Of a stretch of 64,000 nt of DNA, positions 12,004 through 64,000 are shown in pieces; position 1 is the first letter of the stretch; each line of letters starts with the position of its first letter. Location: positions 16,739-80,738 of the forward strand of contig CAZBFH010000001.1 in assembly GCA_964491185.1 (NCBI GenBank), in the 5' to 3' direction. The notes under the pieces were generated by a model, which saw only the letters and a list, made by a program, of their open reading frames with translations, made no database searches and was not told the origin of the DNA. Position numbers and translations under genes: made by a program. The DNA comes from an uncultured Gammaproteobacteria bacterium. GTDB taxonomy: Bacteria; Patescibacteriota; Microgenomatia; Levybacterales; UBA12049.

Positions 12004-12027
12004 CAAGGCCTCCCTGCGAGGCTAAAG
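12004..12027. repeat. Second copy of the GC-rich motif GGCCT(CCC)TGCGAGGCTAAA with short hairpin potential, directly after the stop of the priming transferase
   Basis: caaggcctccctgcgaggctaaag aligns with 6921-6937 (ggccttgcgaggctaaa). The gcctc/gaggc pair can form a 5-bp stem. Confidence 0.45.
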
Positions 12028-12687
12028 GGCGCCTTTCCCTGAAATCATGGCACCTGGGGTTTTCATAATTATAGACATATCATATGCAATTGATCTTTTC
12101 TTAACATACTCAGCATCCATTTTTATTCTTTTATCAAAATTTATCTCAGATCTTCCAGAAACCTGCCAATATCCAGTCACCCCAGGACGTACTGAAAGTA
12201 CAATTTTTACAGGCTCCCGAGTCTCCGGATATCTAACCTGTTGATCCCTAAGCTCATCTGGATAATATGCGCGAGGCCCAACAAGACTCATGTCACCTTT
12301 TAAAATATTAAAAAACTGAGGAACTTCATCAAGAGAATGCTTTCTAATAAAATGCCCAACATTTGTAATCCTTGGATCATCTTTTAACTTATAACTTCCT
12401 TTCTTATAATCCCTATACAGTTCTGCAAATTTAGGATTTTCCCGCAAAAGCTCATGAGCATTTTCAATCATGGAGCGGAATTTATACATCTTAAATAGCT
12501 TGCCGTTTTTTCCAACTCTCTCAGGAGTATCCGCCAAAACAGGCCCTTTTGAGTCAAGCTTAATGGCTATTGCAACTAAAATAATTATTGGGGAAAAGAT
12601 AACAATAAGAACAAGAGACAAAACTATATCTAGTAGTCTCTTAAAAAACTCATACAAAACACTTTTTCTGACTTCGATAATAGGCAT
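12022..12687 (-). CDS. Monotopic polyprenyl-phosphate phosphoglycosyltransferase (PglC/WbaP-C-terminal-like 'bacterial sugar transferase'). Priming enzyme.
   Basis: 221 aa. Re-entrant N-terminal helix, KFRSM motif, VGPRAYYPDE and PGVTGYWQVSGRSEINF, the PF02397 signature. Confidence 0.85.
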   Translation of the reverse strand: MPIIEVRKSVLYEFFKRLLDIVLSLVLIVIFSPIIILVAIAIKLDSKGPVLADTPERVGKNGKLFKMYKFRSMIENAHELLRENPKFAELYRDYKKGSYKLKDDPRITNVGHFIRKHSLDEVPQFFNILKGDMSLVGPRAYYPDELRDQQVRYPETREPVKIVLSVRPGVTGYWQVSGRSEINFDKRIKMDAEYVKKRSIAYDMSIIMKTPGAMISGKGAL

Positions 12688-12688
12688 A

Positions 12689-13762
12689 TTACGTAAGGTG
12701 TTCGTTGGGAGTTCCTGCGAGACTCTCTACTAACTTTTTAATTTTAGGAACAGAAGACTTAGGGCAAACCAAAACTACATCCTCAGTATTAATTACAAGC
12801 ATTTCCGATAAATCAATTCCTACAGTTAACTGGTTTGTGTAATTAAATACGAGGCTATCCCTAGAATCTTCTATCATGACTTTTCCCTTAGTCACATTTT
12901 CATCAACTTTTTCACTAAGCGCTTCTTTTAGAGCCTCCCACGCTCCAATATCACTCCACCCAATATCTACTGAAATTACTGAAATCTTACTTGTTGTAAA
13001 TTTCTCAAGTATTGCGTCGTCAAAACTAATCTTCTCAAGCGTTGGATAAATTTCATCAAGTGATTTTTCAAAATCTGAAGAGTCAACGATTTTGATAAGA
13101 TCCTCATACATTTGAGGCACAAATCTTTCAAATTTCTCAATCAGATAAGAAGGGGTTGTAACAAAATATCCTAAGTTCCAAACATAGTGTTCATCCTGAA
13201 AAAAGTCTTCAGCCTGAGACAGTTTTGGCCTATATTTAAGTTTTTTAAATTCTAACGCTCGAAGACCTTCCTCAGTCCAAAGCTCATCACCGCAATAAAT
13301 CCACCCTACATTTTGGTTTGCGAATCTGGGCTTTTGACCTATGAAAACAAAGTCTGATTTTCCATCAAGAATAGATTTTTCAGCCATACGAAGAGCTTTT
13401 TGAAAAATCTTAATCTCTCTAACCATATGATCACTCCAGATAATCGCCATGGGTTCGTTTGGGAATTTTTTATTAATTATGGCCGTTGTAAGTCCAATTG
13501 CAGGCCCAACATCTCTCATTTCGGGCTCAAAAATAAAATTATCTTTTGGAATCTCAGGGAGCTGCGAAATAACTATATCTTTATATCTTTTTCCAGTAGC
13601 GACATAAATATCTTGCGGGCTAAACTCCGGCTGAAGTCTTGCAACCGCATCTTGAAGAGTTGATTTGTCACCTATTAATTTTCCAAATTGCTTTGGAGTA
13701 TTCTTCCTTGATAGTGGCCAAAGCCTTGTTCCTACTCCTCCTGCGAAAATAACTACTTTCAT
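12689..13762 (-). CDS. manC: Mannose-1-phosphate guanylyltransferase (GDP-mannose pyrophosphorylase, no PMI domain)
   Basis: 357 aa. MKVVIFAGGVGTRLWPLSRKNTPKQF N-terminal nucleotidyltransferase motif typical of ManC. Confidence 0.78.
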   Translation of the reverse strand: MKVVIFAGGVGTRLWPLSRKNTPKQFGKLIGDKSTLQDAVARLQPEFSPQDIYVATGKRYKDIVISQLPEIPKDNFIFEPEMRDVGPAIGLTTAIINKKFPNEPMAIIWSDHMVREIKIFQKALRMAEKSILDGKSDFVFIGQKPRFANQNVGWIYCGDELWTEEGLRALEFKKLKYRPKLSQAEDFFQDEHYVWNLGYFVTTPSYLIEKFERFVPQMYEDLIKIVDSSDFEKSLDEIYPTLEKISFDDAILEKFTTSKISVISVDIGWSDIGAWEALKEALSEKVDENVTKGKVMIEDSRDSLVFNYTNQLTVGIDLSEMLVINTEDVVLVCPKSSVPKIKKLVESLAGTPNEHLT

Positions 13763-14844
13763 AAATTTGTATTCTTTTCTATGAATTCTTCCAAATTTTT
13801 CTTAAAGTTTTTATAAGAAAATCTCTCTGAATTCCTTATTATGTCAGCCTTATTATATAGTCTTTCATCAAATCTTTCCAATACCCTATTTATCGATTCC
13901 GGGCTTTGTTCTTGAAAAAACTCACCAGTAATTCCTTTTTTAACTATGTCCAATGCTCCTCCGCTTTTAAATGCTATGACTGGTTTTCCAAAAGCCTGGG
14001 CCTCTGCCATTACTAATCCAAAGTCTTCATTTCCGGGAAAAATTAAAGCTTTGCAATTTTCATAGTAATACCTAAGCTTCTCATCTGTCAATTCTCCAAG
14101 AAACTGTATGTTTCTATTTGAGCGTTTTTTTAATGATGCCATCATAGGCCCTCCCCCAATTATTTTTAAAGGAAGTCCATTTTTATTAAATGCCTCAACT
14201 GCAAGATCTACTCTTTTGTAATTACTAAATCTAGACATACGTGACACTAGAAGAAAATAATCGTTTTTTCTTTTTTTAATATTTTTGGGAATATCAAGCA
14301 TAAGTGGGGGGAAAATTATTTCACTATTTCGATCGTAATATTTCTTAATTCTATTTTTTACTTCCGAAGAAATCGCAATCATATAATCTGGTCTTTGAGA
14401 AGCCACAAGATCCCATTTTCTTAAATATTTTATGGATCCTGTTGATAAAAATTTAATCAAAGGACTCCTGAAATATTCATCATGCCCACTCCATAAATAT
14501 CTCGTTGGCGTAAGACAATAGCAAACATGTATTGTTCCCGTATTTGTAATTATTCCTTTAGCCGCTTCACTTGTTACTGAGATTACAAGTTCATAGTCAT
14601 CAAATGAAAAGCGCTCAAAAGCAATTGGCATGAAAACTGCAAGAAGCTCATTATACTTTCGAAGAGCAGAAGCACTTTGAAGAAATGAAGTTTTTATTTC
14701 AAAATCATTTGCCCATTTACTCCCTTCAAAACTCCTAACAGATGTGAACAAAGGAGCATCTGGAAACATTTTGTGAAGCGCTAAAAGGACTCTTTCTGCT
14801 CCACCCCATTTATTTACCCGATCATATACTAGTGCGACTTTCAT
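13759..14844 (-). CDS. Glycosyltransferase family 4 (GT-B)
   Basis: 361 aa. C-terminal EDFGLVMAEAQAFGKPVIA (E-x7-E GT4 motif). Confidence 0.8.
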   Translation of the reverse strand: MKVALVYDRVNKWGGAERVLLALHKMFPDAPLFTSVRSFEGSKWANDFEIKTSFLQSASALRKYNELLAVFMPIAFERFSFDDYELVISVTSEAAKGIITNTGTIHVCYCLTPTRYLWSGHDEYFRSPLIKFLSTGSIKYLRKWDLVASQRPDYMIAISSEVKNRIKKYYDRNSEIIFPPLMLDIPKNIKKRKNDYFLLVSRMSRFSNYKRVDLAVEAFNKNGLPLKIIGGGPMMASLKKRSNRNIQFLGELTDEKLRYYYENCKALIFPGNEDFGLVMAEAQAFGKPVIAFKSGGALDIVKKGITGEFFQEQSPESINRVLERFDERLYNKADIIRNSERFSYKNFKKNLEEFIEKNTNL

Positions 14845-14880
14845 ATTATTTATTTAGGCAGAGGTGGCTTATGCCAAATT

Positions 14881-15987
14881 CTATGAGGTGCTACCTTCAT
14901 AAACCGTTAAAGTTTCTCTAGCTGTTTTTTCCCACGAATATTTTCCTGCTTGGTCGTGTCCCTTTTTAACTAATTTCTCTTTATCGGAAAGATTCAAACT
15001 TAAGACGTAGTTCATTTTCGAAAGTATATCATCTGTTTTGAATTGATCAAAGTAAATAATTGAATCCCCAAAAATCTCCCTATGAACAGGTATGTCGGAA
15101 GCCAAGACTAAACAATCATTTTCAAGCGCTTCCAAAGGCGGAAGACTGAACCCCTCCATTAAGCTTGTCCTAACCAACGCAGTTGCACCTTTATAAAGCT
15201 CTGACAATCTTTCGTCCGATACATTTTCCAGAAAGTGCACGCTTCCTTCCTTAAAATTTTTCCTAACATGATCTTTAAGTTTTTTGTATAAAAAATCATT
15301 ACTTCCAACAAAAACTAAACGAAGAGATGAATCTTTTCGTGAAAGAATCTTAAACGATTCAAGAAGAAGTCCTACATTTTTATGCGCAAAAACATTTCCT
15401 ACATAAAGAAAATAATTTTTTATTTTCTCTTCTTTTTTATTGGATTTTTTCATATCATCAGCTGCCTCATAAATAACATCAATTTTTGATTTATTAACTT
15501 TTAAAGTCTCGCTTATATCTTTTTTTGTAAAATCAGAAACAGCAATAATTTTTTTCGAAACTCTAACTGCATTTGCAACTACAACTCGATAAGCGATAAC
15601 TTTAAAACCCAAAAGCCAGAGAGGAAGAGTTGAAGAAGCACCACTTACGTAATGGTGAAAAATTAAATCATGAATCGTTACTACGTATGGACGCCTATAA
15701 AAAATGGGAACACTAAAATAAGGAAAATGCATTAAGTCTAATTTTTCTTTTTTTATAACTTTGGGAAAGAATAATTGCTCTTTAATTGAGTGCCATTTAT
15801 ATTCTGCATTTACTATTTTCCAATTTTTATTTTTTATTTTTTCTTCAATTTCTTTTTTATCAGACTTTAAAACAAACAAAACATAAGAATTTTTATTATC
15901 TATCTCAGATAAATTTATAGTTAGATTTCTAATATATCTACCAACTCCTGTTTGACTCCAAAGGCGACAATCAACTCCTATTTTCAT
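14881..15987 (-). CDS. Glycosyltransferase family 4 (GT-B)
   Basis: 368 aa. EGFSLPPLEALENDCLVLASD motif. Confidence 0.8.
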   Translation of the reverse strand: MKIGVDCRLWSQTGVGRYIRNLTINLSEIDNKNSYVLFVLKSDKKEIEEKIKNKNWKIVNAEYKWHSIKEQLFFPKVIKKEKLDLMHFPYFSVPIFYRRPYVVTIHDLIFHHYVSGASSTLPLWLLGFKVIAYRVVVANAVRVSKKIIAVSDFTKKDISETLKVNKSKIDVIYEAADDMKKSNKKEEKIKNYFLYVGNVFAHKNVGLLLESFKILSRKDSSLRLVFVGSNDFLYKKLKDHVRKNFKEGSVHFLENVSDERLSELYKGATALVRTSLMEGFSLPPLEALENDCLVLASDIPVHREIFGDSIIYFDQFKTDDILSKMNYVLSLNLSDKEKLVKKGHDQAGKYSWEKTARETLTVYEGSTS

Positions 15988-16856
15988 ACTATTTTTTTTC
16001 TTCGGGTTAAAAATAATCTAATATCAATCCCAAGATATACTAACCAATTTAAAAAGAATGGATACTTTTTTGCATAATGTTTTTTGTAAAATATTTTCAT
16101 TGTCATATAAAAATATCCAAGTGATTTATTTTTTGTAGAATTATCTGCACCAGAATTCCTTTGACTATGTTTTTTAATGCCAGAAGACACTCCTTTGACA
16201 TGCAGAATTTTTACCTCTGGAACATACATAACTTTAAATCCTGCTTTTTTTACTCTAAAGCATAGATCAATATCCTCGCCGTAAAGAAAATAATCCTCGT
16301 CAAAATATCCAGTCTTTTCAAGTACTGATTTTCTTATAAACATAAACGCACCAACAACAGAATCCACCTCGTGAGTTTTTGACATATCTCTATTTGTTAA
16401 ATGATAAAGCCTATCGTTCTTTAAAAAGAAGTATAAAAACGAAGCGAATGGAGTCGGAAAACCTCTATGAGAAGCCGCATCAATTGAACCATCTTCTTTC
16501 TCGACTCGAGAAGAAGCAATTCCAACATCTAAATTCGTATCCATGTAATCAGATACAAACTTTAATGTACCTGGTGGAACTTCACTATCTGGATTAAGGG
16601 TTAATAAATATGGAGTATTAGCTTTTTTTAAAACTAAATTATGTGCTTTACCAAATCCTAAATTTTCTTTATTAAAAATAAAATTAAATTGGGGAAATTT
16701 TTCTTTAGCTTTTTCTTGACTTCCATCAGACGAATTATTATCAACTATGAAAACGTCAAATTCTAATTCATTCTCAATTTTTTTCAAAGATTCCAAACAT
16801 TTAATTAGATAGTCTCCAGCATTAAAATTAACGATAGAGATTGTTAGTTTTTTCAT
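15984..16856 (-). CDS. Glycosyltransferase family 2 (GT-A)
   Basis: 290 aa. N-terminal ISIVNFNAGDYL, D-x-D region, rhamnosyltransferase-like. Confidence 0.8.
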   Translation of the reverse strand: MKKLTISIVNFNAGDYLIKCLESLKKIENELEFDVFIVDNNSSDGSQEKAKEKFPQFNFIFNKENLGFGKAHNLVLKKANTPYLLTLNPDSEVPPGTLKFVSDYMDTNLDVGIASSRVEKEDGSIDAASHRGFPTPFASFLYFFLKNDRLYHLTNRDMSKTHEVDSVVGAFMFIRKSVLEKTGYFDEDYFLYGEDIDLCFRVKKAGFKVMYVPEVKILHVKGVSSGIKKHSQRNSGADNSTKNKSLGYFYMTMKIFYKKHYAKKYPFFLNWLVYLGIDIRLFLTRRKKIV

Positions 16857-18023
16857 TTAATTTAAACTTTCGTAAACTTTATCCAATTTTTCAGAAATAT
16901 TTTTCCAGTCAAAGTTTTTTTCTATGAATTTTCTACTATTTCTTGAAATCTTTTCATATAAATATTCATCGGAAAGAAGAAGTGACGCTTTATTGGAAAA
17001 TTCTTCTGGTTTATCGCAAATAATTATTTCCTCATTTTCCGTAGCCTTAATTCCCTCATTCCCAAGTGCAGTAGTGATCACAGGAGTACCGGTAGACATA
17101 GCTTCTAATATTTTAAAATTTGTTCCCCCACCCACCCTAATTGGAGCAAGTAAAATATCAGCCTCTTGAAAAATATTTTCCGTTTTATTCGAAGCATTCT
17201 CATCAAAAACAACAGAGAGGTCCCCAATTGCTTTAATAGAATCTGGAATTTTTTTCCCTACTACCCAAAGAGAAGTATTGGGATTATTCTTCAAAATTTT
17301 AGGCCAGATATTTTTTATAATATAAACTATTGAGTCTCTATTTTGAATCCATTTAAAATCTCCAATAAATAAAACCTTTTTGTGTGTTTTATCTTTTATA
17401 ATTTTTTTCATTTTAAATTTCTGAGTATCAACACCATTTGGAATTATATCTACATCCCTTTTCATCTCTTCTGCCTCTACTTTCGAGACTGCAATTAACT
17501 TAGTAGCTTTTTTCCAATATGCTTTTTCTGCTCTTTTCAGTTTTAAAATATCAAGATATAAAAGAGGACGCCCAATAATTAAACTTTTCTTAACAAACTT
17601 CTCATAAACTTTGTACTCTATATTATGCTCTGCTAAAACAACGGGTAAATTAGTCCTGGGTAAATTTTGCATCACGTAAAAGGTCTCTACGTGAATAAGG
17701 TCAAACACCTCTTCATTTATCAGTTTTGAAATAATTTTTTTCATTTCAAGATTTCTATGTCCTGTTATTAAAAAAGGATCTAAGGAAAATCCTGTTCTTA
17801 AAATGTTTTTCGGGGTCCATTGTTTTTTTCGGTCAACCGTATAAACCTCATCACAAATTTTGGAAACCTCCCCTATGTCTTTCGTAGTCTGATAATCTCT
17901 TTTTTCACAAACCAACGTTATTGAATGTTTTTCCGATAAATTTTTAATAAGATTATAAAGACGAATCTGTCCACCTGAAAAGAGTGGGTAGGGAAGATAT
18001 GATGAAACTATTAATATTTTCAT
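16857..18023 (-). CDS. Glycosyltransferase family 4 (GT-B)
   Basis: 388 aa. MKILIVSSYLPYPLFSGGQIRLYNL N-terminus, C-terminal GT-B nucleotide-binding domain. Confidence 0.8.
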   Translation of the reverse strand: MKILIVSSYLPYPLFSGGQIRLYNLIKNLSEKHSITLVCEKRDYQTTKDIGEVSKICDEVYTVDRKKQWTPKNILRTGFSLDPFLITGHRNLEMKKIISKLINEEVFDLIHVETFYVMQNLPRTNLPVVLAEHNIEYKVYEKFVKKSLIIGRPLLYLDILKLKRAEKAYWKKATKLIAVSKVEAEEMKRDVDIIPNGVDTQKFKMKKIIKDKTHKKVLFIGDFKWIQNRDSIVYIIKNIWPKILKNNPNTSLWVVGKKIPDSIKAIGDLSVVFDENASNKTENIFQEADILLAPIRVGGGTNFKILEAMSTGTPVITTALGNEGIKATENEEIIICDKPEEFSNKASLLLSDEYLYEKISRNSRKFIEKNFDWKNISEKLDKVYESLN

Positions 18024-19459
18024 AGGCTTTTTCTTAAATCAAAAATAATATACTGCTGAGTTTCTTCTAAAACAGCATAATTTTTTCTGAAATAATCATC
18101 GTTGGGTTTAGGGTTAGCAATTACTAGATATTGAGCTCCTAAATCTTTTACCATCACGCTTAAATCATTTTGATAACTTGCCCATCCCTTTCTTCTAGTT
18201 TGATATAAAAAGGATGTATCACCTTCGTAATTTGCAATAACTAATGCATCTTTTGGAGTTAGTCTGTCAACTGCATTTCCACCTGCGATTATCGCATCAT
18301 TTATATCATAGTAATCTCTTACGAAAAACCAACTAAACATACAGGAAAAGACAATAATACCAATAAGGATTATTGGCGTAAGATATTTATTTGCTAAGTT
18401 TTTTCCTAAGTTAAGTAAAAAATCCCCGCCCACTCCAGAAAGTAAACAAAGAGTAGGTAGAATCAATATTTGGTAATAATCATGTTGAATATTTCCCCTT
18501 GCTATTACAATTAAGTAAAGAAGTGAGGAGGCTAGAAAAGAATAGAAAAATAGATAACTTGATTTAGTTTTAGCAACTAATCCAAAAACCACTAAAACTA
18601 ATCCCCAGTAACCAAGTATTAGCTTGGCAATTCTTTCTGCAAAAATCCAATTAAAAAAAGCTCCCTTAAAACGCATGCCACCTTTATTAAAAAGCCATTG
18701 CGACATCGGTATTCCTTCAGGAAATTGTGTCATCCACTGCCTCCATCCAAGCATAGGAAGGAGTGATGTTATAGCAAATACCCAAAGATATGGATTAAGA
18801 ATCATTTTTAATCCAAATGAATTGTATGCTAGATAAACCATAGGAAGAGTAAAAAATACTGCAAAGGGTTTTAGCAAAAATGAAATCGCACTAAATAATA
18901 TTGCCAATAAATAATAAGTAAACTTTTTGTGCTTCGATTTTTCCAAAAGCCATAAATCGAAAAAATAAATTCCCGCTAAAATAGCTGCCGCGGTTGATGT
19001 ATCAGGCAAAATTGTTCTCCCATAATAAACACTAAATGGAAGGATTGCAAAAAAAAATGCACCAATTATTCCTGCTCTTTCATTCTGATGTCTTTTGAGT
19101 AATAAAAAAATTAACAATGCGGTAGAGAGAGATGCGAAAATAGTAACTAGTCTTCCCCATTCTTCCAGGGTAAAAACTGGAAATAATCTATATAACCCTC
19201 CCTGAAATAAATTGTAAATTGGAAACTCTACAAAACGATATCCATTTGGATTATTTAACCCTGAAGGAACATTTGATAAATCATGATACTTTGGATGAAG
19301 CAGATCAAATCCATTTTCTACAAAAAGTCTTGAAACGGATGATGTATCAGCTTGACGCCAGCTATGCCAGTCAGCAACTGGACCATTAAATTTATAAAGT
19401 CTTAGAATAAGTCCAAGGAGTAATACACCAATAAGAAGCCCCAAGTGAATTCTTTTCAT
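18020..19459 (-). CDS. Polytopic GT-C-type glycosyltransferase (ArnT/PMT/GT39-83-like)
   Basis: 479 aa with about 12 predicted TM helices. First loop motif WRQADTSS and the overall architecture resemble ArnT-like lipid-linked sugar transferases. Confidence 0.5.
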   Translation of the reverse strand: MKRIHLGLLIGVLLLGLILRLYKFNGPVADWHSWRQADTSSVSRLFVENGFDLLHPKYHDLSNVPSGLNNPNGYRFVEFPIYNLFQGGLYRLFPVFTLEEWGRLVTIFASLSTALLIFLLLKRHQNERAGIIGAFFFAILPFSVYYGRTILPDTSTAAAILAGIYFFDLWLLEKSKHKKFTYYLLAILFSAISFLLKPFAVFFTLPMVYLAYNSFGLKMILNPYLWVFAITSLLPMLGWRQWMTQFPEGIPMSQWLFNKGGMRFKGAFFNWIFAERIAKLILGYWGLVLVVFGLVAKTKSSYLFFYSFLASSLLYLIVIARGNIQHDYYQILILPTLCLLSGVGGDFLLNLGKNLANKYLTPIILIGIIVFSCMFSWFFVRDYYDINDAIIAGGNAVDRLTPKDALVIANYEGDTSFLYQTRRKGWASYQNDLSVMVKDLGAQYLVIANPKPNDDYFRKNYAVLEETQQYIIFDLRKSL

Positions 19460-19480
19460 TAAGTTTATTTTAATTTATCC

Positions 19481-56800: not shown

Positions 56801-57528
56801 TTGTAATAGTTAAGGATCCTTATTCTATAAAAAACTGCCAAAGTATCAACCATCGTCCAAAAAGATATTTTCCAAAAATTCTTACTAGTTACACTCCCTT
56901 GCTTAAAGCTTAATTTTATAGGCGCTTCAATAATTCTTGTATATCCAAGTAACCTAGCTACAGCTAAAACTTCTACATCAAAAGCAAAAGCTTTTACGAT
57001 TATTTTTGGGAAAACCTCCTTAGCCGTTTTTTTTCTAAAAAACTTAAGCCCAACCTGCGTATCTCTAACATTTAGCCTAAAAAGTATTTTAATAAGCGTC
57101 CTATATCCCCAAGACAATATTTTCCGACTCAATGGATACTCTATTATCGAGTCTGGGTGTAGCTTACTACCAATTACAATATCAGCTCGCGACAATTCCA
57201 TCATATTAAGCATTATTGATATTTCAGAAGGATTTAGATCCATTCCTGCATCAATAAATCCAATAATATCCCCTCTCGCTTTCTCTACTCCAAGCTTTAT
57301 CGCAAACCCTTTTCCCTTATTTTCTCCATATCCAATTAGAATTACTTTATTATTTTTAATATCTTTTAATTTTTCATAAGTTTTATCTAAGAATCCATCA
57401 ACCACAACTATGATCTCGTATTCTGTGGATAATGAACCCAAAACAAAATCAAGACTTTTAATATCTTCAATTATAGTTTTTTCTTGTTTGTAAGCAGGAA
57501 CTATTAAAGAAATGAAATTAGCGGCCAT
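56797..57528 (-). CDS. Soluble DPM-synthase/GtrB-like GT2 (polyprenyl-phosphate sugar synthase candidate)
   Basis: 243 aa. ISLIVPAYKQEKTI, IIVVVDGFLDKT, FIDAGMD. 4-nt overlap with the downstream PMT-like gene. Confidence 0.68.
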   Translation of the reverse strand: MAANFISLIVPAYKQEKTIIEDIKSLDFVLGSLSTEYEIIVVVDGFLDKTYEKLKDIKNNKVILIGYGENKGKGFAIKLGVEKARGDIIGFIDAGMDLNPSEISIMLNMMELSRADIVIGSKLHPDSIIEYPLSRKILSWGYRTLIKILFRLNVRDTQVGLKFFRKKTAKEVFPKIIVKAFAFDVEVLAVARLLGYTRIIEAPIKLSFKQGSVTSKNFWKISFWTMVDTLAVFYRIRILNYYK

Positions 57529-57533: not shown

Positions 57534-58817
57534 TTATTTGTAAGAATATTTGAACTCATTTATCTTTAAATAATACATGACAAGTGAAATCATAAGCAAC
57601 AATGATGAAAAAATAGATACGTATATAATTTGACCAAAATTAGAATGATATATCCACATTAAGATTATCTGAAGTGCTGCGAATAAAAGAGCAATCATAA
57701 ATACTCTTGTTTTTTTAATCGAAAGAAAAAAGCTGACAAAAACATTGTTAACGCTATAAATTGTTAAAAATATTCCAAAAAGACCAAGGTATGGAGCGAC
57801 TGATAAATACTCCCCTCCTCCTAAGAAAATTGAGACAGTGAAATTGGAAAAAAGAAAATAAAATCCAGTCATTAATATTGATGGGATAAGAACTAAAGAT
57901 AATGCGATATAGAAAAGATTATTATAATTTTCTTTATTAGTATGACGTTTAACGATTAACGGAAACATAGCTATTGGAATTGGTCCCGTAAAGTAAAAAA
58001 TAACTTTGCCAATTAGAGATAGGCCCCCGTAAAACCCGGCATCCTGTGAATTAAAAAAATGTTTAACAACTAACACATCTGTTGATATGAAGGAGGATAA
58101 AGAAAAAATGGCAATCGTCGTTGGTATAGCATAAGATAGAATGTCGTTCCTCCCAATATTGATTTTCTTACTTGCATTTAAAATCACAGATTTTAACGGT
58201 ATAAAACCAAAAACAAAATCAAGAAGAGAAAAAATTATTACAGCAGCTAATGCACCATAAACCTTAAAACCCATCATAATAAGAATTATTCCGCTTATCA
58301 GCTTTCCAACTCCCGCTATTAGATACAAAGACCCGAGTAACTTAAACTTAAGCATACTTTGGATAAATGCCATATTTAAAGTAGCTAAGTAAAAAATTGA
58401 TATAGAAAATCCAACCATAATTACAAGACCAATATCGTTAATCTTTAGGAATGAAAGTATTAAAGGTGAAAGCGTGATAATTCCAATATTTAAAATCACG
58501 CTGAACAATAGTAAATATTTGAAAGATTTTATATAAAACGCACCTGCTCTTTGAGTTTCATTTTTTGAAAAAAACTGGGCCGCGTATCTAACAATAATCG
58601 ATGATAATGAGCTTGCAGGAATTATCACAAGAGTAATTAAAGACATTAAGCTTGCAAATGTTCCATAATCTGAATATGTCAAATTCCTTGCGAAGTAAAC
58701 ATTTAAAATAAATGCTAGAAAACTTGATGCAGTAGTTCCAACTAAAACAAAAAAGCTCCCAGATATTAAATCATGCTTTATGCTATTTATTATGATTTTC
58801 CTTATTTTTTCGATCAT
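57534..58817 (-). CDS. Wzx-type polysaccharide/oligosaccharide flippase (MOP superfamily)
   Basis: 427 aa with 12-14 TM helices. N-terminus ...SGSFFVLVGTTASSFLAFILNVYFARNLTYSDYGTFASLMSL is typical of Polysacc_synt (PF01943/PF13440) proteins. Confidence 0.68.
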   Translation of the reverse strand: MIEKIRKIIINSIKHDLISGSFFVLVGTTASSFLAFILNVYFARNLTYSDYGTFASLMSLITLVIIPASSLSSIIVRYAAQFFSKNETQRAGAFYIKSFKYLLLFSVILNIGIITLSPLILSFLKINDIGLVIMVGFSISIFYLATLNMAFIQSMLKFKLLGSLYLIAGVGKLISGIILIMMGFKVYGALAAVIIFSLLDFVFGFIPLKSVILNASKKINIGRNDILSYAIPTTIAIFSLSSFISTDVLVVKHFFNSQDAGFYGGLSLIGKVIFYFTGPIPIAMFPLIVKRHTNKENYNNLFYIALSLVLIPSILMTGFYFLFSNFTVSIFLGGGEYLSVAPYLGLFGIFLTIYSVNNVFVSFFLSIKKTRVFMIALLFAALQIILMWIYHSNFGQIIYVSIFSSLLLMISLVMYYLKINEFKYSYK

Positions 58818-59875
58818 TTTTTATTGAAAATTTCAACATATGCATCATATGTTTCTTTAGCAGTCTTTTCCCATGAGAATTTTTTTACATTTTCAAATCC
58901 TTGCTTTATTAAATTCTCTCTAAATTTTTCATCTTCAATAACCCCACTTAACCCTGCTTTAATTGAATCAGTGCTTAATGGATCAACATAACACGCCCCA
59001 TCTCCTGCCACCTCCGCAAGTGACCCTAATTTTGAAGTTATAACAGGACAACCCGACTGCATCGCTTCAAGAATTGGCAAACCAAAGCCCTCATAAAGTG
59101 AAGGCATCACGAGAACAGTTGCAACGTTATATATCGCTACCAAATCCTCATCGTCAACAAAACCCAAAGAAATAACTTTATTATTTTTTGACGCAAGTTC
59201 TTGTGCTTTCTTTAAATCCTTATTCCAGAGATTATCAGCATCATATTGAGTATTTTTAAACGCCTGTCCAACGATCACCAATGAATAATTAGTATTATTT
59301 ATTGCCTCAATAAGTCTTGGAAGATTTTTATTTGGAGTAACATCTCCTACATATAGAGCAAACTTATCAGGTAAACTAAATTTTCTAACCACTTCTTTCT
59401 TTTTTTCTTCAGTAATTTGCCTAAAGTGCTTGGCTGCCGCAAGATAAATTACTTTAATTCCCGATGTTTCGTAACCAACGATTTTCGCTATATCTTTTTT
59501 TGATGATTCTGAATCTGTAATAATTAGATCTGAATTTTTAAGTATTTTTTTTTGTATTTGCCATTTAAATGCCCCTTTTATACCAACTGGGAAATCATTC
59601 CTGAAAACTAACGGGGTGAGATCATGAACCGTTATTATTGTTTTTACAGTCTTTATGATGGGAAGTGTTATAAAAAATGGTTCAAAATATGGGTAATGGA
59701 TTAGATCAGTTGAGTGAGAGATTTTATCACCTCTCTTAATCAAAACGAAATCCTCTGGGCCATATTTTTCTATTAAGGCCTCCTTGAGATTATTTAAGTA
59801 AAATCCAGTACCTCTTACTCTATGCTGAAGATAATGGCCGGAAGTTATGGGAGAAACATCAATTGCTACCTTCAT
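58814..59875 (-). CDS. Glycosyltransferase family 4
   Basis: 353 aa. EGFGLPILEAMQSGCPVITSKLGSLAEVAGDGACYVDP. Confidence 0.8.
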   Translation of the reverse strand: MKVAIDVSPITSGHYLQHRVRGTGFYLNNLKEALIEKYGPEDFVLIKRGDKISHSTDLIHYPYFEPFFITLPIIKTVKTIITVHDLTPLVFRNDFPVGIKGAFKWQIQKKILKNSDLIITDSESSKKDIAKIVGYETSGIKVIYLAAAKHFRQITEEKKKEVVRKFSLPDKFALYVGDVTPNKNLPRLIEAINNTNYSLVIVGQAFKNTQYDADNLWNKDLKKAQELASKNNKVISLGFVDDEDLVAIYNVATVLVMPSLYEGFGLPILEAMQSGCPVITSKLGSLAEVAGDGACYVDPLSTDSIKAGLSGVIEDEKFRENLIKQGFENVKKFSWEKTAKETYDAYVEIFNKK

Positions 59876-61524
59876 TTCTTAATTTTAATGTATTTCTCCC
59901 TCATAAACAAACAAAATAACGAAAACGTTGAAAATATTGTAATAATCAAAGAAATGATTTGAAGCTTGGTACTTTTTAGAATTATCTCCAGACTATGCTG
60001 ACCCCTAGGTACACTTACTTCAAATATCCCATCCTTGGTAGTTTTTATAGGTATCTGATTACCATCAAGCTTTACAGTCCAACCTGGAAAATACGCGATA
60101 TTAATTCTAATTTTACCCTCAGTTTCACCTGAAATAAAAACATTTTCACCTGTGACATTACTAGAGATAGTTTTTATCTTGATTTCTTTTGATGAAATTC
60201 TTTCATTTACTGGCTCAAGCTTTGCATTGAAATTAAGTGTATTGAAAACATTCCCTGGACTGTTTGTTCCATTGGTAAAATTATCCCTAGAAAGATAATA
60301 CTCATCGTCTCTTAAGTGATGATAAGGAGCCTTAATGTAATTAAACGAAAATCCAATTGAGAGCGCTATTAACACTAAAGAAAGAATGATTCGAATCTTT
60401 TCTTTTTTTATCAAAGTTTCTGAAACAATAAAACCGGCAAGAAATGATGATGCCAAGATAAGTACACTTAAGAGTCTCCATGGAAATTGAATATAAGACA
60501 CTAAGGGAACATTTTGCCAAATAAATTTAGAAAAGGGCGTTATCAGAAAAAGTGTAAAGATGAATATAAACAAGAATAAACCTACGATTCCAATTCTTTT
60601 CTTAAATATAAAAATTGCCGAACATATTAGTATTACCAAAAGATTTACGATTCCTATTTGAAATGACATTTGATCAGGCATATTAACTCCTGAAAACCCA
60701 TATCCCCATGATGAATAAATTAGTTTATAAATTACGGGGAAATGCTCGGTCGGATCGAAAATCTGAAGTCCTCTTACATATTTTGTTTCAAGAATGGCAG
60801 GTAGCCAAAAAATTGCCGAAAGTCCAATTCCAAAAAAAGAAATAAAAATCGAAGAGCTAAATTCTTTTAATTTAATTATGATATTTTGTTTTTTTGAAAA
60901 AGATGAAAAAAATGCATACACTAAAAAGAGGGAGAAGAAAACAACCGCAAGGATATTATGAGCTAAAACTATTAACGCTAGGATAAATGATGTTAATACA
61001 AAATATTTTATCTTCTTAGAATCCATATATGATTGATAACCCCACAATAATCCTGGGGCTAGTCCCAAGCTCCATACTTCTCCAACTGAACCTCTCACAT
61101 AAATATCAAGCAAATGATACGGTGAGTAGGCGTAGAAAACGGAACTCACTAAAGCACCCCAGTTTCCCCAAAACCTTCTGGACCATAGGTAAGTAAAAAT
61201 TGAACCAATAATAGTCGCAAAAATCATATTCAACTTTAATGAATCAATAAAACTAAATCCTACTAGATGCGTGAATGATGCTACATAGTTTGGAAGAGGA
61301 TAAACATAATTGAATAGTGGTATTCCATATCCATTATTAAAATCTTCAGCCCATCTTGGATAAAGAGTTCCTTCATTTATGGATTTGAAGAATTGCTGAA
61401 ATCTTAGAACATGAAACTCTCCATCATGTGTTGGTGGAAGACCAGGTTTTAAAAGAGAAATTACAGATAAAAACGAGATGGCGACTCCTGCAATCAATAA
61501 TTTATAATTTTTAGCTTTCTTCAT
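59872..61524 (-). CDS. YfhO-like polytopic GT-C glycosyltransferase with C-terminal TM anchor
   Basis: 550 aa. N-terminal loop PTHDGEFHVLRFQQF...LYPRWAEDFNNGYGIPLFNYVYPLP. C-terminal IAYFPGWTVKLDGNQIP...LEIILKS followed by a TM helix. Paralog of 27587 and 29878. Confidence 0.5.
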   Translation of the reverse strand: MKKAKNYKLLIAGVAISFLSVISLLKPGLPPTHDGEFHVLRFQQFFKSINEGTLYPRWAEDFNNGYGIPLFNYVYPLPNYVASFTHLVGFSFIDSLKLNMIFATIIGSIFTYLWSRRFWGNWGALVSSVFYAYSPYHLLDIYVRGSVGEVWSLGLAPGLLWGYQSYMDSKKIKYFVLTSFILALIVLAHNILAVVFFSLFLVYAFFSSFSKKQNIIIKLKEFSSSIFISFFGIGLSAIFWLPAILETKYVRGLQIFDPTEHFPVIYKLIYSSWGYGFSGVNMPDQMSFQIGIVNLLVILICSAIFIFKKRIGIVGLFLFIFIFTLFLITPFSKFIWQNVPLVSYIQFPWRLLSVLILASSFLAGFIVSETLIKKEKIRIILSLVLIALSIGFSFNYIKAPYHHLRDDEYYLSRDNFTNGTNSPGNVFNTLNFNAKLEPVNERISSKEIKIKTISSNVTGENVFISGETEGKIRINIAYFPGWTVKLDGNQIPIKTTKDGIFEVSVPRGQHSLEIILKSTKLQIISLIITIFSTFSLFCLFMREKYIKIKK

Positions 61525-62636
61525 TTGAAGACATTTTTCAATGCGGCCTTAATATCATTTAAGGAGAAAAATAGTAATCCAATTATCGGAGTATATGTGA
61601 CGATTATTTTAATTAAAGGAGTTATTCCAAAATGCGTTCCTAAATACATATAAGGAATATATCTAAGCATTAATCCGAATGACAAAGTAAATCCTAATAT
61701 TTTTAATTTTTTATTTTCTGAAAGTGATATAAAAGCTAAAAACCAAATTCCATACCAAGGGTAAATTTCCTCTCTGATTGGAGACAAAAGAAATATCACA
61801 AACATTAACGCGAAGGAATAAGTGTAAATCTTTTCCCAATCGATTTTTCTTTTTTTTATTCTGAGAAACAAATAATAAATGAAAACCGGTACAAGAAGAA
61901 TAGTGGCATATTTTATTAAAATCGAAAATACAAGAAATATAATAGCTAGAATAATCTTTTCTTTTTTTAAAAGATAAAATGAAAGAAATGCAAAAAATAT
62001 CATCGAAACGTCATTATGCCCCGAAACAAATGTTTCGATTAAAACTAGGGGACTTAAAGCAAAATATGCGACATTTCCAATATTCTTAGTGAATTTGTAA
62101 ATCAGATAAATGATCCCGAAATAGAAAATCATTACAAAGAGCTTAAAGTTAAACAACGTCAGAAGGAAATTATTAAATCCGAGAAAATGTGGAAGACTTG
62201 TAATCCCAATCCAAGATGGACCATAAAGAGCGACTTTATTTGCTGCATGCGTGAATCCTAAGTATGGGTCTCCTAAGAACTCAATTGGCATAATTATAAA
62301 GGGATTCTCGTGATATAAATATAAAATTTTAGCAGTAAAAATATAATTAAATATGTCATATGAAAGAATTGCCGGATAAGAAAAAAATAAGAGAACAGCA
62401 GAAAGAACAACAACATTCATTAATATTTTTTCTGTAATCCTCCTGAGAAAGAAAAAATAAAATAGGAAAAATAAAGAAATAAAAATTAAGTAAATAAGAG
62501 CAACCAATTCTCTATTAAGAGTTGCAAAGGCTGTATAAAGACTCGTCATGTAAGTCAGATTTTGATCTACAAATAAATATGAGAAAAATGTGAACGCCAG
62601 AAGAAATAAACCATAACCTAAAATCAAAAGCTTCAT
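61521..62636 (-). CDS. Polytopic membrane protein (GT87/DUF2029-like glycosyltransferase candidate)
   Basis: 371 aa with about 11 TM helices. SGHNDVSMIFFAFLSFYLL segment. No soluble domain. Confidence 0.4.
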   Translation of the reverse strand: MKLLILGYGLFLLAFTFFSYLFVDQNLTYMTSLYTAFATLNRELVALIYLIFISLFFLFYFFFLRRITEKILMNVVVLSAVLLFFSYPAILSYDIFNYIFTAKILYLYHENPFIIMPIEFLGDPYLGFTHAANKVALYGPSWIGITSLPHFLGFNNFLLTLFNFKLFVMIFYFGIIYLIYKFTKNIGNVAYFALSPLVLIETFVSGHNDVSMIFFAFLSFYLLKKEKIILAIIFLVFSILIKYATILLVPVFIYYLFLRIKKRKIDWEKIYTYSFALMFVIFLLSPIREEIYPWYGIWFLAFISLSENKKLKILGFTLSFGLMLRYIPYMYLGTHFGITPLIKIIVTYTPIIGLLFFSLNDIKAALKNVFK

Positions 62637-63157
62637 AAAACACTATTTCTAATATTTATTGAATCATCAATTAATCCCTTTAAATTTAAATTTGTTGAAG
62701 GAGATTTTTCCGGACTCCAATTAACCTCTTCTGGCAATTGACCCGCCAAACCCCCTAGAAGATCCATATGTCTCCGTGAGGCTTCCCTAAGCAACTCTTC
62801 TCTTTCAGAAATGTCTTTTCCATTTCTCTGAGCGTTTTCAAGATTAGGATAAATTTCCATAAAATATTCATCTGATTTCTTAAGAGCTTTTGTAGCTAAT
62901 AAATATTGCTTATAATCAAACAACGTCTTAGCCTCGACTAAATAATGGTCAGATTCTTTAAGATTGTAATCAAATTTACCAAAATCACCGAAATAAATAT
63001 ATTTACTTATTTTTGAAACAATAAGTCTTGGTTTATATAAAATATTTCCTGGCATATATGAAGGGTAAGGGAGAACATAAGTAGATTCAGCGCTAACATT
63101 TCCCGGCAAAAATAGGAATAGACTAAAACAGAAAATTAGGAAAATCTTCTTAGACAT
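62633..63157 (-). CDS. Secreted hypothetical protein (cleavable signal peptide)
   Basis: 174 aa. MSKKIFLIFCFSLFLFLPGNVSA-ESTY signal peptide with an AXA-like cleavage site. Confidence 0.45.
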   Translation of the reverse strand: MSKKIFLIFCFSLFLFLPGNVSAESTYVLPYPSYMPGNILYKPRLIVSKISKYIYFGDFGKFDYNLKESDHYLVEAKTLFDYKQYLLATKALKKSDEYFMEIYPNLENAQRNGKDISEREELLREASRRHMDLLGGLAGQLPEEVNWSPEKSPSTNLNLKGLIDDSINIRNSVL

Positions 63158-64000
63158 TTTTTGTATGCCACTGCCAGGCGGTTTTTACAATTGTTTCTAT
63201 GTCTGAATACTTTGGTGCAAATCCCAAGCCCTCTCTGGCCTTAGTGTTATCTGCATATATCATTGCAGGATCACCAGATCTTCTGGGCTTTATGTCTACT
63301 GGAAAATCTACTCCACTTACTTTTTTTATTTCTTCAAGAATTTGAAGATTTGAATATCCTATTCCTGCGCCTAAATTAAAATAATCACTCTCCCCTTTTT
63401 CTACAAGTAAATTCAGAGCTTGAAGATGCGCAATTGCTAAATCCTCTACGTGTATGTAGTCTCTCACGCAAGTTCCATCTTTTGTTTCGTAATCATTCCC
63501 AAACAAAGAGAAGGAAGCATTAGATATGGCTGCTTGAATGGCAATTGGAATAATGTGAGTTTCTGGATCATGATTTTCACCAATTGAACCATCCAGAGCA
63601 GCTCCAGCCGCATTAAAATATCGTAAATTAACATGCTTTATTCCATATACCTTCTCATACCAATCTAGAATATTTTCAAACATCAGCTTTGAGTCACCAT
63701 AAACGCTTTCTGGTTTTTTTGACTCATTCTCTGATACAGGTAAATTCTTAGGGGTTCCGTAAATTGCACATGTTGAGGAGAAAATTATCTTCTTAATCCC
63801 TTTTTCTTTCATAAATTCAAGGAGATTCAAACCACCTTGAATATTATTGTTGAAATATTTATAAGGATCTTTCATCGATTCACCTGCAAGAGCAGATGCA
63901 GCAAAATGTATTACCCCGTCAAATTCATATTTACCAAGATTCTCAAATAGAAAGTCTTTATTCTTAAGATCTCCGATAATTAAATTTCCACTAACCGCTT
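63150..64000 (-). CDS. galE: UDP-glucose 4-epimerase GalE (5' end lies beyond the window)
   Basis: ORF track begins at M63875, but own translation of 63876-64000 continues in frame without stops (…VSGNLIIGDLKNKDFLFENLGKYEFDGVIHFAASALAGES-MKDPYKYF). This matches the GalE vIHFAA..VGES region. Downstream: NLRYFNAAGA..DGTCVRDYIHVEDLAIAH. Confidence 0.8.
   Translation of the reverse strand, partial: AVSGNLIIGDLKNKDFLFENLGKYEFDGVIHFAASALAGESMKDPYKYFNNNIQGGLNLLEFMKEKGIKKIIFSSTCAIYGTPKNLPVSENESKKPESVYGDSKLMFENILDWYEKVYGIKHVNLRYFNAAGAALDGSIGENHDPETHIIPIAIQAAISNASFSLFGNDYETKDGTCVRDYIHVEDLAIAHLQALNLLVEKGESDYFNLGAGIGYSNLQILEEIKKVSGVDFPVDIKPRRSGDPAMIYADNTKAREGLGFAPKYSDIETIVKTAWQWHTKNV

Follow-up and report, generated by a model that had tools for sequence, protein, structure and literature searches.

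What might explain why a candidate phyla radiation (CPR) bacterium, with a genome of only about 0.8 Mb, keeps tens of kilobases of tightly packed glycosyltransferase genes beside its cell-division genes, and what would such a locus make? The locus lies in a 64,000-nucleotide stretch of metagenomic contig CAZBFH010000001.1 (assembly GCA_964491185.1, positions 16,739 to 80,738), referred to here as the window, and a preliminary description made from the sequence alone had called it a glycosylation island devoted to one surface-glycan system. To judge from its composition and gene order it is no acquired island and appears to be native and vertically inherited. We consider it probable that it is a super-cluster for envelope glycan synthesis in a Levybacterium, the product of which is most likely a wall-associated heteropolysaccharide or lipoglycan replacing teichoic acids. 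The genomes of CPR bacteria are minimal, a life attached to other cells is assumed for them, and to our knowledge almost nothing is known about their surface chemistry.

The gene inventory is the starting point of this reading. Pfam searches of every open reading frame (ORF) assign nine GT2 and eight GT4 glycosyltransferases (GTs) plus one half-GT4, so that the preliminary count of 17 GT-A/GT-B enzymes is matched exactly. A transmembrane (TM) scan finds 12 polytopic proteins in the block, and ten GT-C domains are recognised, where about ten GT-C-like membrane proteins had been expected: six by Pfam (PMT_2, GT-C_AftD or PTPS_related/YfhO, in the genes at 18020, 29878, 33311, 46604, 55466 and 59872), one by a precomputed match to PF26314, and three by profile-profile comparison with hhalign (43677 against the 46604 family, 99.0%; 27587 against the AftD-like family, 98.8%; the C-terminal half of 19481 against the 33311 family, 99.5%). 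There are thus 28 glycosyltransferase domains in 52 kb, and the GT-Cs of the full block number at least 13 when the upstream genes of relatives are counted. A priming transferase (Bac_transf), a Wzx and a Wzy_C domain occur once each within 54 kb. The remaining assignments are two hexapeptide acyltransferases, two S-adenosylmethionine (SAM) methyltransferases, ManC, RmlC, RmlD, an RmlD-like reductase, two short-chain dehydrogenase/reductase (SDR) epimerases/dehydratases, a GalE-type epimerase, a sugar-1-phosphate nucleotidyltransferase and a DegT/RfbH-type pyridoxal phosphate (PLP) enzyme. The Wzx flippase, Wzy_C-like protein, nucleotide-sugar enzymes and methyl- and acetyltransferases named at the outset are therefore all recovered, as are three GT2s resembling polyprenyl-phosphate-sugar synthases (26052, 45185 and 56797), each under its NCBIfam equivalog cut-off. 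With them stands the central claim of the preliminary description, that a Wzx/Wzy-type lipid-linked assembly line (priming enzyme, GT-A/GT-B enzymes, Wzx and Wzy_C) in the cytoplasm occurs together with many extracytoplasmic GT-Cs.

That description had placed the block between the PglC-like priming enzyme and the end of the window; the genes are there, and the block itself begins further downstream, at the DUF4012 gene (9950), and continues past 64000. Between 12022 and 64000 the ORF listing contains 46 minus-strand ORFs, in keeping with the roughly 45 co-oriented genes reported, 45 of them complete and one, a GalE-type epimerase gene with its frame open up to 63998, cut at the window end. 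The 45 junctions comprise 29 overlaps, 14 of which are of the four-nucleotide ATGA type, three abutting pairs, 12 gaps of 1-59 nt and one gap of 554 nt. The array, said to be uninterrupted, is broken once, in the 554-nt segment, by a plus-strand ORF (27083-27619). Four long overlaps (-71, -64, -95 and -38) shrink to -32, -4, +1 and +7 when ortholog-length start codons are used, and are artefacts of start choice under the longest-ORF rule. Non-coding DNA amounts to 1.6% of 9950-64000, compared with 7.2% of the core/housekeeping part (1-9949). The entire window is a minus-strand array of GC content 0.29-0.38 with negative GC skew throughout, and because RecO, an aminoacyl-tRNA synthetase, mraZ, mraW, ftsI and two mur ligases (Pfam) lie on the same strand, co-orientation does not set the glycan genes apart. 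Promoter-like sites are found in the few intergenic gaps, at 11950-11921 and 43168-43140 (11/12 matches each) and at 46589, and scanning the gaps of the block gave no terminator-like sites; since promoter and terminator counts are no higher than in shuffled sequence, these scans do not establish an operon structure.

Sequence beyond 64000 is known solely from a 98.75%-identical strain fragment and from relatives. In the fragment GalE has 321 aa, and ahead of it lie a membrane protein of 196 aa and the end of a PMT_2-type GT-C; two relatives carry, upstream of GalE and on the same strand, a PMT_2 GT-C, two further polytopic proteins, a GT2 and two PTPS-related GT-Cs. The glycan block therefore occupies at least 54 kb in the window, plus at least 10 kb upstream in relatives. 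A metagenome scan with an upstream GT-C of one relative returned only relatives at 41-51% identity and no distal boundary. In the distant Levybacterium JAUSEW01 a strand switch about 9 kb upstream of GalE may be the distal end, which would give a block of about 80 kb there, 27 kb of it unseen. The full block probably measures 60-80 kb, up to about a tenth of the genome.

Two of the encoded proteins have folds that are central to the argument. The first, the 1090-aa product of 19481-22753 (minus strand, like all genes discussed below unless stated otherwise), has about 17 TM segments, and ATG 22714 is its likely start. Its match to Wzy_C in the window copy is E=0.005 (17 bits, under the gathering cut-off of 31.7), and among its orthologs 13/17 match Wzy_C (best 3.5e-15) and 3/17 match PMT_2 in the other half. 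A PDB search with the sequence profile of the 1090-aa protein gave no match, and a search with the family profile of the second protein, the AftD-like enzyme, gave nothing significant (marginal match, E 0.09), so fold comparison was needed. The AlphaFold2 model of the first protein (predicted local distance difference test, pLDDT, 84.8; predicted template modelling score, pTM, 0.86) matches GT-C enzymes, including Pmt4 and Pmt1-Pmt2, and the O-antigen ligase WaaL (7tpg), with a target-normalised template modelling score of 0.61. Judged from the model and the ortholog matches, the protein is best described as a Wzy_C/WaaL-like N-terminal half fused to a GT-C C-terminal half. An unfused N-terminal half of 463-478 aa occupies the same position in Daviesbacteria-like loci, and about 35 full-length fusions, together with separate N-half and C-half homologs, occur among 1.8 billion cluster representatives. 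The protein at 43677-45143 was considered as the missing Wzy and rejected, being a clear GT-C paralog by hhalign. As the other polytopic proteins resolve as GT-Cs, no other Wzy polymerase candidate is left.

The AftD-like enzyme (29878-33318, 1146 aa; PF11847, 33.1 bits against a cut-off of 26) has a GT-C domain at the N terminus, a large extracytoplasmic part made of helices and beta-sandwiches, and a TM segment at the C terminus. The three best PDB hits of its AlphaFold2 model (pLDDT 83) are all mycobacterial AftD (6wby, 6wbx and 6w98; E 6e-13 to 2.5e-12, template modelling scores 0.40-0.45). UbiA-type and DprE-type proteins of decaprenyl-phospho-arabinose synthesis found no match among the window ORFs, so the donor sugar of the AftD-like enzyme cannot be called arabinose.

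The gene families, these two folds, the synteny and the native composition are observed; the substrates, order of steps, acceptor and number of polymers are inferred, and the scheme that follows is drawn from what is established for such families. The priming transferase would load hexose-1-phosphate onto undecaprenyl phosphate, and the GT4 and GT2 enzymes would extend the lipid-linked chain in the cytoplasm. Predicted donors are GDP-mannose (ManC), a rhamnose-type 6-deoxyhexose (nucleotidyltransferase, SDR, RmlC and RmlD), a UDP-galactose-type sugar (GalE), and an amino- or deoxy-sugar of the amino-dideoxy kind (DegT, reductase and acyltransferases), and methyl and acetyl groups would be added. 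The single Wzx would flip the lipid-linked oligosaccharide, which the Wzy_C domain would then polymerise or ligate to an acceptor. In parallel, the three DPM1/ArnC-like GT2s would make polyprenyl-monophosphate sugars, to be used outside the membrane by at least ten GT-C enzymes, which would lengthen the product and add branches to it. That glycans are here extended on glycans is suggested by the discoidin domain of one GT-C and by the beta-sandwich modules in the AftD-like enzyme.

Several observations weigh against such a scheme or blur it. Only RmlC and GalE pass NCBIfam equivalog cut-offs, the other enzymes showing family-level resemblance. Pfam scans of the window find no Wzz/polysaccharide co-polymerase (PCP) chain-length regulator in any ORF at E <= 1e-3 (DUF4012 sits at the neighbouring position), no LytR-CpsA-Psr (LCP)-type peptidoglycan ligase and no ATP-binding cassette (ABC) exporter; nor is there a GtrA-family flippase, the 114-aa and 75-aa membrane proteins having no GtrA match even at E <= 5. 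Attachment and export steps are consequently unassigned, and the acceptor could be peptidoglycan, lipid or protein. By sequence or fold a Wzy_C polymerase, ligase and O-oligosaccharyltransferase look alike, and PMT_2-type enzymes include protein mannosyltransferases, so that the output may partly or wholly be glycoprotein. The distal boundary lies outside the DNA seen in the window, the source contig measures 87,140 bp, and the share of the genome given to the block, about 7-10% of about 0.8 Mb, takes its genome size from relatives.

Whose locus is it, and how old? Scanning GTDB species representatives with the priming enzyme yielded 80 loci (best 95-97% identity), which as best priming-enzyme matches are orthologous neighbourhoods by construction. 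The named ones belong to Candidatus Levybacteria/Levyibacteriota, with Gottesman-, Davies- and Roizmanbacteria more distant, and the host is a Levybacterium (Microgenomates, CPR), as the preliminary guess of a CPR-like genome had it. Chromosomes or largest contigs of relatives measure 0.76-0.82 Mb (a 762,565-bp chromosome and a 784,859-bp contig among them), so the large coding share that had been pointed out is real. Representative metagenome-assembled genomes (MAGs) that are Levybacteria by synteny and identity are often titled 'uncultured Gammaproteobacteria bacterium', and one Pacearchaeota, one Bacteroidetes and one Eisenbacteria label occur among them; all these titles have the appearance of placeholder names or mis-binned records.

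Compared across these genomes, the locus falls into three parts. An ancient backbone common to the Microgenomates runs in the window from 9950 to about 33300, from DUF4012 to the AftD-like GT-Cs; a distal block of GalE, DUF5667 and the MptA/B-type and YfhO-type GT-Cs is conserved as well; and the middle varies by cassette. The backbone order PMT_2, GT4, (GT2), GT4, GT4, (ManC), PglC is kept in 50/55 loci with enough flank, DUF4012 directly follows the priming enzyme in 68/69 related loci, and dcw (division and cell wall) genes lie within 10 kb in 45/51; the neighbours of the locus are recO and the dcw cluster. Within the genus, CAYQEJ01 and JAHZTO01 agree gene for gene from the GT4/Wzx pair to PMT_2, with minor changes (an extra GT2 and a pseudogenised SDR), and CAZAZU01 differs in one additional protein (611 aa), in a GT2 that is reversed and in its DegT. 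Between genera, the middle part, with its sugar-nucleotide, methyl-, acetyl- and amino-sugar genes, is exchanged by cassettes. In JAUSEW01, the AftD-like protein of which is 35% identical, one stretch runs from the AftD-like gene through a small TM protein, GT-C, ArnC-like GT2, 76-aa protein, half-GT4, GT4, acyltransferase, GT2 and fusion to PMT_2, and another holds a GalE, MptA/B, YfhO block; between them lie formyltransferase, WbqC, carbamoyltransferase and split transketolase genes, some on the opposite strand. Cassette genes for a methyltransferase and DegT are likewise present in the corresponding parts (2380-10023 of one, 12800-15824 of the other) of two stretches retrieved from JAUSEW010000027.1. 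Comparison across related bins, proposed at the outset as a check on cassette variability, thus shows the middle varying between genera and the order constant within the genus. The single surface-glycan system proposed there gives way to a modular locus, the sequence being compatible with one polymer or several.

Could the locus nevertheless have been acquired, as a hypervariable surface-glycan 'flexible island' of the kind found in free-living bacterioplankton? Its total GC is below that of the flanking core (0.323 vs 0.366), the middle section is unlike between genera, and even close relatives differ by the extra GT2, the 611-aa protein, the DegT and the pseudogenised SDR. The GC difference, however, is confined to codon positions 1-2: GC at third codon positions (GC3), the codon composition proposed as a test for an island, is 0.253 in the locus and 0.251 in core genes. 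Mean amino-acid identities of locus and core to relatives are likewise close (71.5 vs 73.4 for CAYQEJ01, 79.5 vs 81.0 for CAZAZU01 and 85.1 vs 85.4 for CAYILI01), gene order agrees gene by gene within the genus, and the class as a whole retains the backbone; hence the native origin argued here. Neither tRNA genes nor repeat boundaries occur in the window, no Rfam family reaches its gathering threshold over the whole window, and none of its ORFs has an integrase or transposase Pfam match. Horizontal acquisition is accordingly very improbable. Still less credit can be given to an assembly chimera or mis-binned contig, in favour of which there is a single local increase in GC, reaching 0.43-0.47 within 27.1-27.5 kb. 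Independent Logan assemblies of three sequencing runs reproduce all junctions tested at 99.5-100% identity (98.75% in one strain variant), both sides of the GC rise included, four other MAGs have the same gene order, and the assembly is sound.

As to what the locus makes, its main task might be the O-glycosylation of proteins, be they S-layer, pilin or other surface proteins, in which a PglL/WsaB-type Wzy_C enzyme moves the oligosaccharide from undecaprenyl pyrophosphate to Ser/Thr/Tyr and PMT_2 GT-Cs O-mannosylate from polyprenyl-phosphate-mannose. Wzy_C domains are common to O-oligosaccharyltransferases and the WaaL fold match does not discriminate, several GT-Cs match PMT_2 with fold matches that include Pmt4 and Pmt1-Pmt2, and the WbaP-like priming enzyme stands with GalE, Rml enzymes and methyltransferases, a combination also present in the Geobacillus S-layer glycan cluster. 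Streptococci, moreover, have protein glycosylation by GtrB and a GT-C (PMC12041528). We nonetheless regard this explanation as unlikely. Ten to fifteen GT-Cs are far more than known protein glycosylation systems use, the AftD-like, MptA/B-family and discoidin GT-Cs point to glycan-on-glycan extension, Pfam scans of the window find no S-layer or pilin gene, and the other known case of DUF4012 beside a priming enzyme comes from a polysaccharide locus (PMC5412050). A serious possibility, if a less probable one than an integrated super-cluster and partly compatible with it, is that several independent pathways are co-located (a backbone polymer, a rhamnose-type polymer and three-component decoration systems) and look like one array solely from leading-strand bias and tight packing. 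The whole window, housekeeping genes included, is after all a minus-strand array in which GC skew is negative throughout, the backbone alone is Microgenomates-wide and the middle varies by cassette, promoter-like sites lie in the few gaps (11950, 43168 and 46589), and three separate GT2s resemble polyprenyl-phosphate-sugar synthases. Against this, one priming transferase, one Wzx and one Wzy_C in 54 kb mean that the pyrophosphate-linked line at least is single, and the scarcity of non-coding DNA relative to the adjacent core, the 14 four-nucleotide overlaps and the lack of terminator-like sites in the gaps favour the super-cluster.

Is the design of this super-cluster new? The preliminary description had called the combination of Wzx/Wzy-type assembly and GT-Cs uncharacterised in such lineages, and our literature search, incomplete in coverage, likewise yields no description for Levybacteria or other CPR; the design as such, however, is established in Gram-positive wall polysaccharides. 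Lactococcal and streptococcal rhamnose wall polysaccharides use lipid-linked assembly, Wzx and three- or four-component GT-C steps (PMC10821137, PMC8035078, PMC9574508), with GacI/GacJ or WpsA/WpsB pairs, Wzx and GT-Cs (PMC10821137, PMC8035078). The rhamnose wall loci (cwps/PSP; GAC gacA-L) resemble the Levybacteria locus in belonging to a single-membrane, Gram-positive-type envelope, in having Rml genes, numerous GT2/GT4 enzymes of the cytoplasm and, after a GacI/WpsA-like GT2, a small membrane protein, and in joining a conserved core to a variable region. The Levybacteria locus is two to three times larger, and it has ten GT-Cs in the window (at least 13 with the upstream genes of relatives) in place of one to three. 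It is primed by a small WbaP-like phosphoglycosyl transferase instead of TagO/GacO, it has the Wzy_C-GT-C fusion and the DUF4012 protein, and no ABC exporter, LCP or GacH-type gene is seen in the window.

Lipid-linked assembly is also combined with GT-C elaboration in mycobacterial arabinogalactan (AG) and lipoarabinomannan (LAM). A comparison of pathway logic, from general knowledge, with the mycobacterial and corynebacterial AG and lipomannan (LM)/LAM systems (AftD, MptA/MptB, Emb, Ppm1 and PMT) finds polyprenyl-monophosphate sugars and many extracytoplasmic GT-Cs on both sides, the Levybacteria counterparts being the AftD-like fold, the MptA/B-family GT-C, ManC, Ppm1-like GT2s and rhamnose enzymes. 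Unlike the mycobacterial system, the Levybacteria window has no UbiA/DprE-type genes among its ORFs, its AftD-like protein has a single C-terminal TM segment and 9% sequence identity to AftD, and its genes form one block, whereas the mycobacterial genes are scattered. Three-component extracytoplasmic glycosylation employs a GtrB/CsbB-type GT2, a GtrA/GtcA flippase and a GT-C such as YfhO (PMC5836110, PMC7389260, PMC11127046). The three GtrB/ArnC/DPM1-like GT2s, the YfhO/PTPS-related GT-C and the other GT-Cs recall such systems, but the GT-Cs far outnumber the donor synthases, and in place of a GtrA-family protein, none of which was detected, there is only a positional candidate, the 114-aa four-TM protein.

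Wzx/Wzy-dependent O-antigen or capsule loci and PglL/WsaB-type loci share with the locus a priming transferase, GT-A/GT-B enzymes, Wzx and a Wzy_C protein in one co-oriented cluster. They differ in that the Levybacteria window has no Wzz/PCP or tyrosine kinase, its Wzy_C is fused to a GT-C, and a Levybacterium has no outer membrane and no lipid A-core acceptor. The DUF4012 family has been remarked on as enriched in, and common to, CPR and Gram-positives (PMC6744442), and the Bifidobacterium longum 105-A exopolysaccharide (EPS) locus has DUF4012 directly beside the priming GT (PMC5412050), the same immediate adjacency as here. That locus, however, is a conventional strain-variable EPS cluster with Wzz, and unlike in B. 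longum the Levybacteria DUF4012 gene connects the glycan genes with recO and the dcw cluster, an arrangement conserved across the class. What is new here, then, is not the design, which is known, but its scale, its occurrence in a CPR host, the fusion of Wzy_C to GT-C, and the fact that throughout the class the backbone is linked to DUF4012, recO and dcw.

The backbone and the genes behind it can be followed in order from the proximal boundary. The DUF4012 gene (9950-11914), part of the locus and its proximal boundary, encodes a membrane-anchored protein of 654 aa with one N-terminal TM segment (PF13196, 86 bits). The priming enzyme (12022-12687) is a small monotopic phosphoglycosyl transferase (Bac_transf, 212.9 bits) that, from its matches to PDB sequences (WbaP 8t53, 166 bits; PglC 8g1n, 107 bits), is PglC-like in size with a catalytic domain nearer WbaP. 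A mannose-1-phosphate guanylyltransferase-like ManC (12689-13762; NTP_transferase and ManC beta-helix in Pfam; NCBIfam GMP_PMI 220 bits, under cut-off) is predicted to supply GDP-mannose. Four backbone GTs assigned by Pfam follow, GT4 (13759-14844), GT4 (14881-15987), GT2 (15984-16856) and GT4 (16857-18023), then the backbone GT-C of the PMT_2 family (18020-19459; 479 aa, about 8 TM segments, PMT_2 42.6 bits), placed by Pfam, TM scan and synteny, and the fusion. Beyond the fusion, a GT2 (22683-23564), a hexapeptide acyltransferase (23564-24118) and a GT4 (24111-25244), all by Pfam, keep their order in CAYQEJ01 and the distant JAUSEW01.

The half-GT4 (25246-25818) has the N-terminal Rossmann domain alone (190 aa, Pfam Glyco_transf_4 only), with orthologs of 176 aa in CAYQEJ01 (60-63% identity) and 185 aa in JAUSEW01 (58%). 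A recent pseudogene was considered and rejected, as the intact ORF is kept in the distant JAUSEW01. Next to it lies a 75-aa protein with two TM segments (25819-26046), called by ORF and TM scan directly downstream of the ArnC-like GT2, with counterparts of 77 aa in CAYQEJ01 and 76 aa in JAUSEW01; by analogy with the activators described in PMC10821137 it is a candidate GacJ/WpsB-like activator, and Pfam and NCBIfam searches found no sequence match of the small partner proteins to GacJ/WpsB. Both the half-GT4 and the 75-aa protein are separate intact ORFs in CAYQEJ01 and JAUSEW01 and look like functional accessory subunits rather than decay. The ArnC-like GT2 itself (26052-27032), with two C-terminal TM segments, resembles polyprenyl-phosphate-sugar synthases of the ArnC/PgfS/GacI type (Pfam GT2, 112.7 bits; NCBIfam ArnC 170 bits and PgfS 152 bits, both under cut-offs), and its CAYQEJ01 copy is 89% identical. 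Beyond the 554-nt segment come a GT-C akin to the AftD-like paralog (27587-29560; 657 aa, about 9 TM segments; hhalign E 6e-17 against the AftD-like family, Pfam GT-C_AftD E=0.0028) and the 114-aa four-TM protein (29547-29891; TM scan). The latter, without a Pfam or NCBIfam match and with positional orthologs of 111 aa (CAYQEJ01) and 125 aa (JAUSEW01), is from its position a candidate small lipid-linked-sugar flippase or accessory subunit. The AftD-like gene follows, and then a GT-C of 553 aa with about 8 TM segments (33311-34972; PMT_2 E=1e-3; hhalign 99.5% to the fusion C-terminal half and 98.3% to the 46604 family).

Next come an SDR nucleotide-sugar epimerase/dehydratase (34956-35948; NCBIfam best GDP-L-fucose synthase-like, 209 bits, under cut-off), a SAM methyltransferase (35945-36886), a GT4 (36879-38033) and a GT2 (38033-39010), all assigned by Pfam. 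RmlD (39007-39936, likely start 39876; Pfam, with NCBIfam rmlD at 209.8 bits, under 224), RmlC (39873-40394; NCBIfam rmlC 193.9 bits, above 155.8), an SDR dehydratase/epimerase (40396-41520, likely start 41424; Pfam) and a sugar-1-phosphate nucleotidyltransferase (41426-42133; Pfam, glucose-1-phosphate cytidylyltransferase-like at 216 bits, under 300) together form a predicted 6-deoxyhexose module (39007-42133). At 1652-2927 of the stretch retrieved from CAYQEJ010000001.1 the ortholog of the 40396-41520 SDR is split over three frames and overlain by a called 147-aa ORF on the opposite strand, a pseudogene in a block that is otherwise intact. Further along lie a GT2 with two C-terminal TM segments (42130-43125; Pfam), a hexapeptide acyltransferase (43154-43714, likely start 43669; Pfam), and the 488-aa GT-C without a Pfam match (43677-45143; about 9 TM segments; hhalign E 3e-18 to the 46604 family and 98.7% to the fusion C-terminal half). 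A short GT2 like dolichyl-phosphate/polyprenyl-phosphate-hexose synthases (45185-45877; NCBIfam AglJ 130.8 bits and PpgS 73 bits, under cut-offs) and a SAM methyltransferase (45879-46544; Pfam) precede the 830-aa GT-C with a C-terminal discoidin (F5/8 type C) carbohydrate-binding domain (46604-49096; PMT_2 27.7 bits, F5_F8_type_C 60.9 bits), an architecture shared by 62 homologs. Pfam places a GT2 from 49083, a GT4 from 50120, a GT2 from 53350, a GT4 at 54357-55469 and a 444-aa PMT_2 GT-C at 55466-56800, and Pfam and NCBIfam together an RmlD-like reductase from 51255 and the DegT/RfbH-type PLP enzyme from 52140.

The third short GT2 resembling polyprenyl-phosphate-sugar synthases (56797-57528) has weak NCBIfam matches to PpgS (47 bits), PgfS and ArnC. 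It is followed by the Wzx-type flippase of the MOP superfamily (57534-58817; 427 aa, 12 TM segments), which scores 22.6 bits against Pfam Polysacc_synt, under the cut-off of 28.2, and four orthologs of which match PF01943 at E <= 1e-5. The block 58814-63157, kept in JAHZTO01, CAZAZU01 and the distant JAUSEW01, consists of a GT4 (from 58814), a GT-C of the YfhO/PTPS-related type (from 59872), both by Pfam, a 371-aa GT-C of the MptA/B family (from 61521; PF26314, MptA_B) and a TM protein with DUF5667 (62633-63157; Pfam). In close relatives a separate membrane-anchored protein immediately upstream of the MptA/B-type GT-C consists of a DUF5667-like segment, which is also present as a helical insert in the AftD-like GT-C (residues 676-748), which suggests a GT-C-associated module; PF18915 is confirmed only in CAZAZU01, the positional proteins of JAHZTO01 and JAUSEW01 having no recorded Pfam match. 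UDP-glucose 4-epimerase GalE (63150-64000; NCBIfam galE 355 bits, above 262) is cut by the window end.

The sole opposite-strand gene of the window, the 178-aa ORF at 27083-27619 (plus strand), lies in the 554-nt segment between the ArnC-like GT2 and the next GT-C, and coincides with the only GC break (27.0-27.6 kb). Its GC content is 0.426 and its GC3 0.246, the genome value, and it is therefore read in that frame. A perfect sigma-70 TTGACA-16-TATAAT (27044-27071), the sole one in 9000-28999 and without a listed 12/12 counterpart in the other two scanned stretches, ends 12 nt upstream of its ATG. Two independent assemblies have the gene with identical flanks; CAYQEJ01 is without it, the flanking genes being 20 nt apart there, and no terminal or flanking repeats surround the insertion. 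Residues 46-136 show a weak likeness to the C-terminal part of a ketosynthase (7zma, E=3.5e-5), and the gene has no Pfam, PADLOC or phage match. A structured RNA was considered for the GC-rich 27.0-27.6 kb and rejected, given the GC3, the perfect promoter and the weak protein match; an Rfam search of 26950-27700 at E<=1 returned no family. The gene does not belong to the glycan pathway and is particular to this strain lineage. On the downstream side of the block, 1-9948 holds recO, a class II aminoacyl-tRNA synthetase, mraZ-mraW-ftsI and two mur ligases, with small proteins lacking a Pfam match at 5993-6361, 6378-6854 (conserved across Levybacteria), 6955-7398 and 8836-9369. Logan contigs have a 94-aa ORF called between mraW and ftsI, presumably in the ftsL position.

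What would such a locus mean for the CPR? Tentatively, and as a proposal we ourselves hold to be doubtful, the Microgenomates, with Levybacteria as the extreme form, may build an essential wall-linked heteroglycan or lipoglycan through a mycobacteria-like GT-C line seeded by a dcw-coupled module (PglC-type priming enzyme, four GTs, GT-C, Wzy_C protein and DUF4012). The product would stand in the CPR where teichoic acids or arabinogalactan stand elsewhere and be the main interface with host and phage, and the Wzy_C-GT-C fusion and DUF4012 would be its ligation/export core, not recognised before. Apart from that proposal, a Levybacterium that spends about 7-10% of its genome on one conserved glycan factory, with unusually many GT-C paralogs side by side, brings to the CPR a logic known from Gram-positives and mycobacteria, in which lipid-linked assembly is followed up by GT-C elaboration. 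Concrete targets for structural work, biochemistry and comparative surveys are the Wzy_C-GT-C fusion, the DUF4012 protein, the AftD-like enzyme, and the pair of GT2 and small membrane protein. Because part of the glycan factory is class-wide and lies beside cell-division genes, the surface glycan is a prime candidate for a role in host recognition, phage defence and wall integrity.

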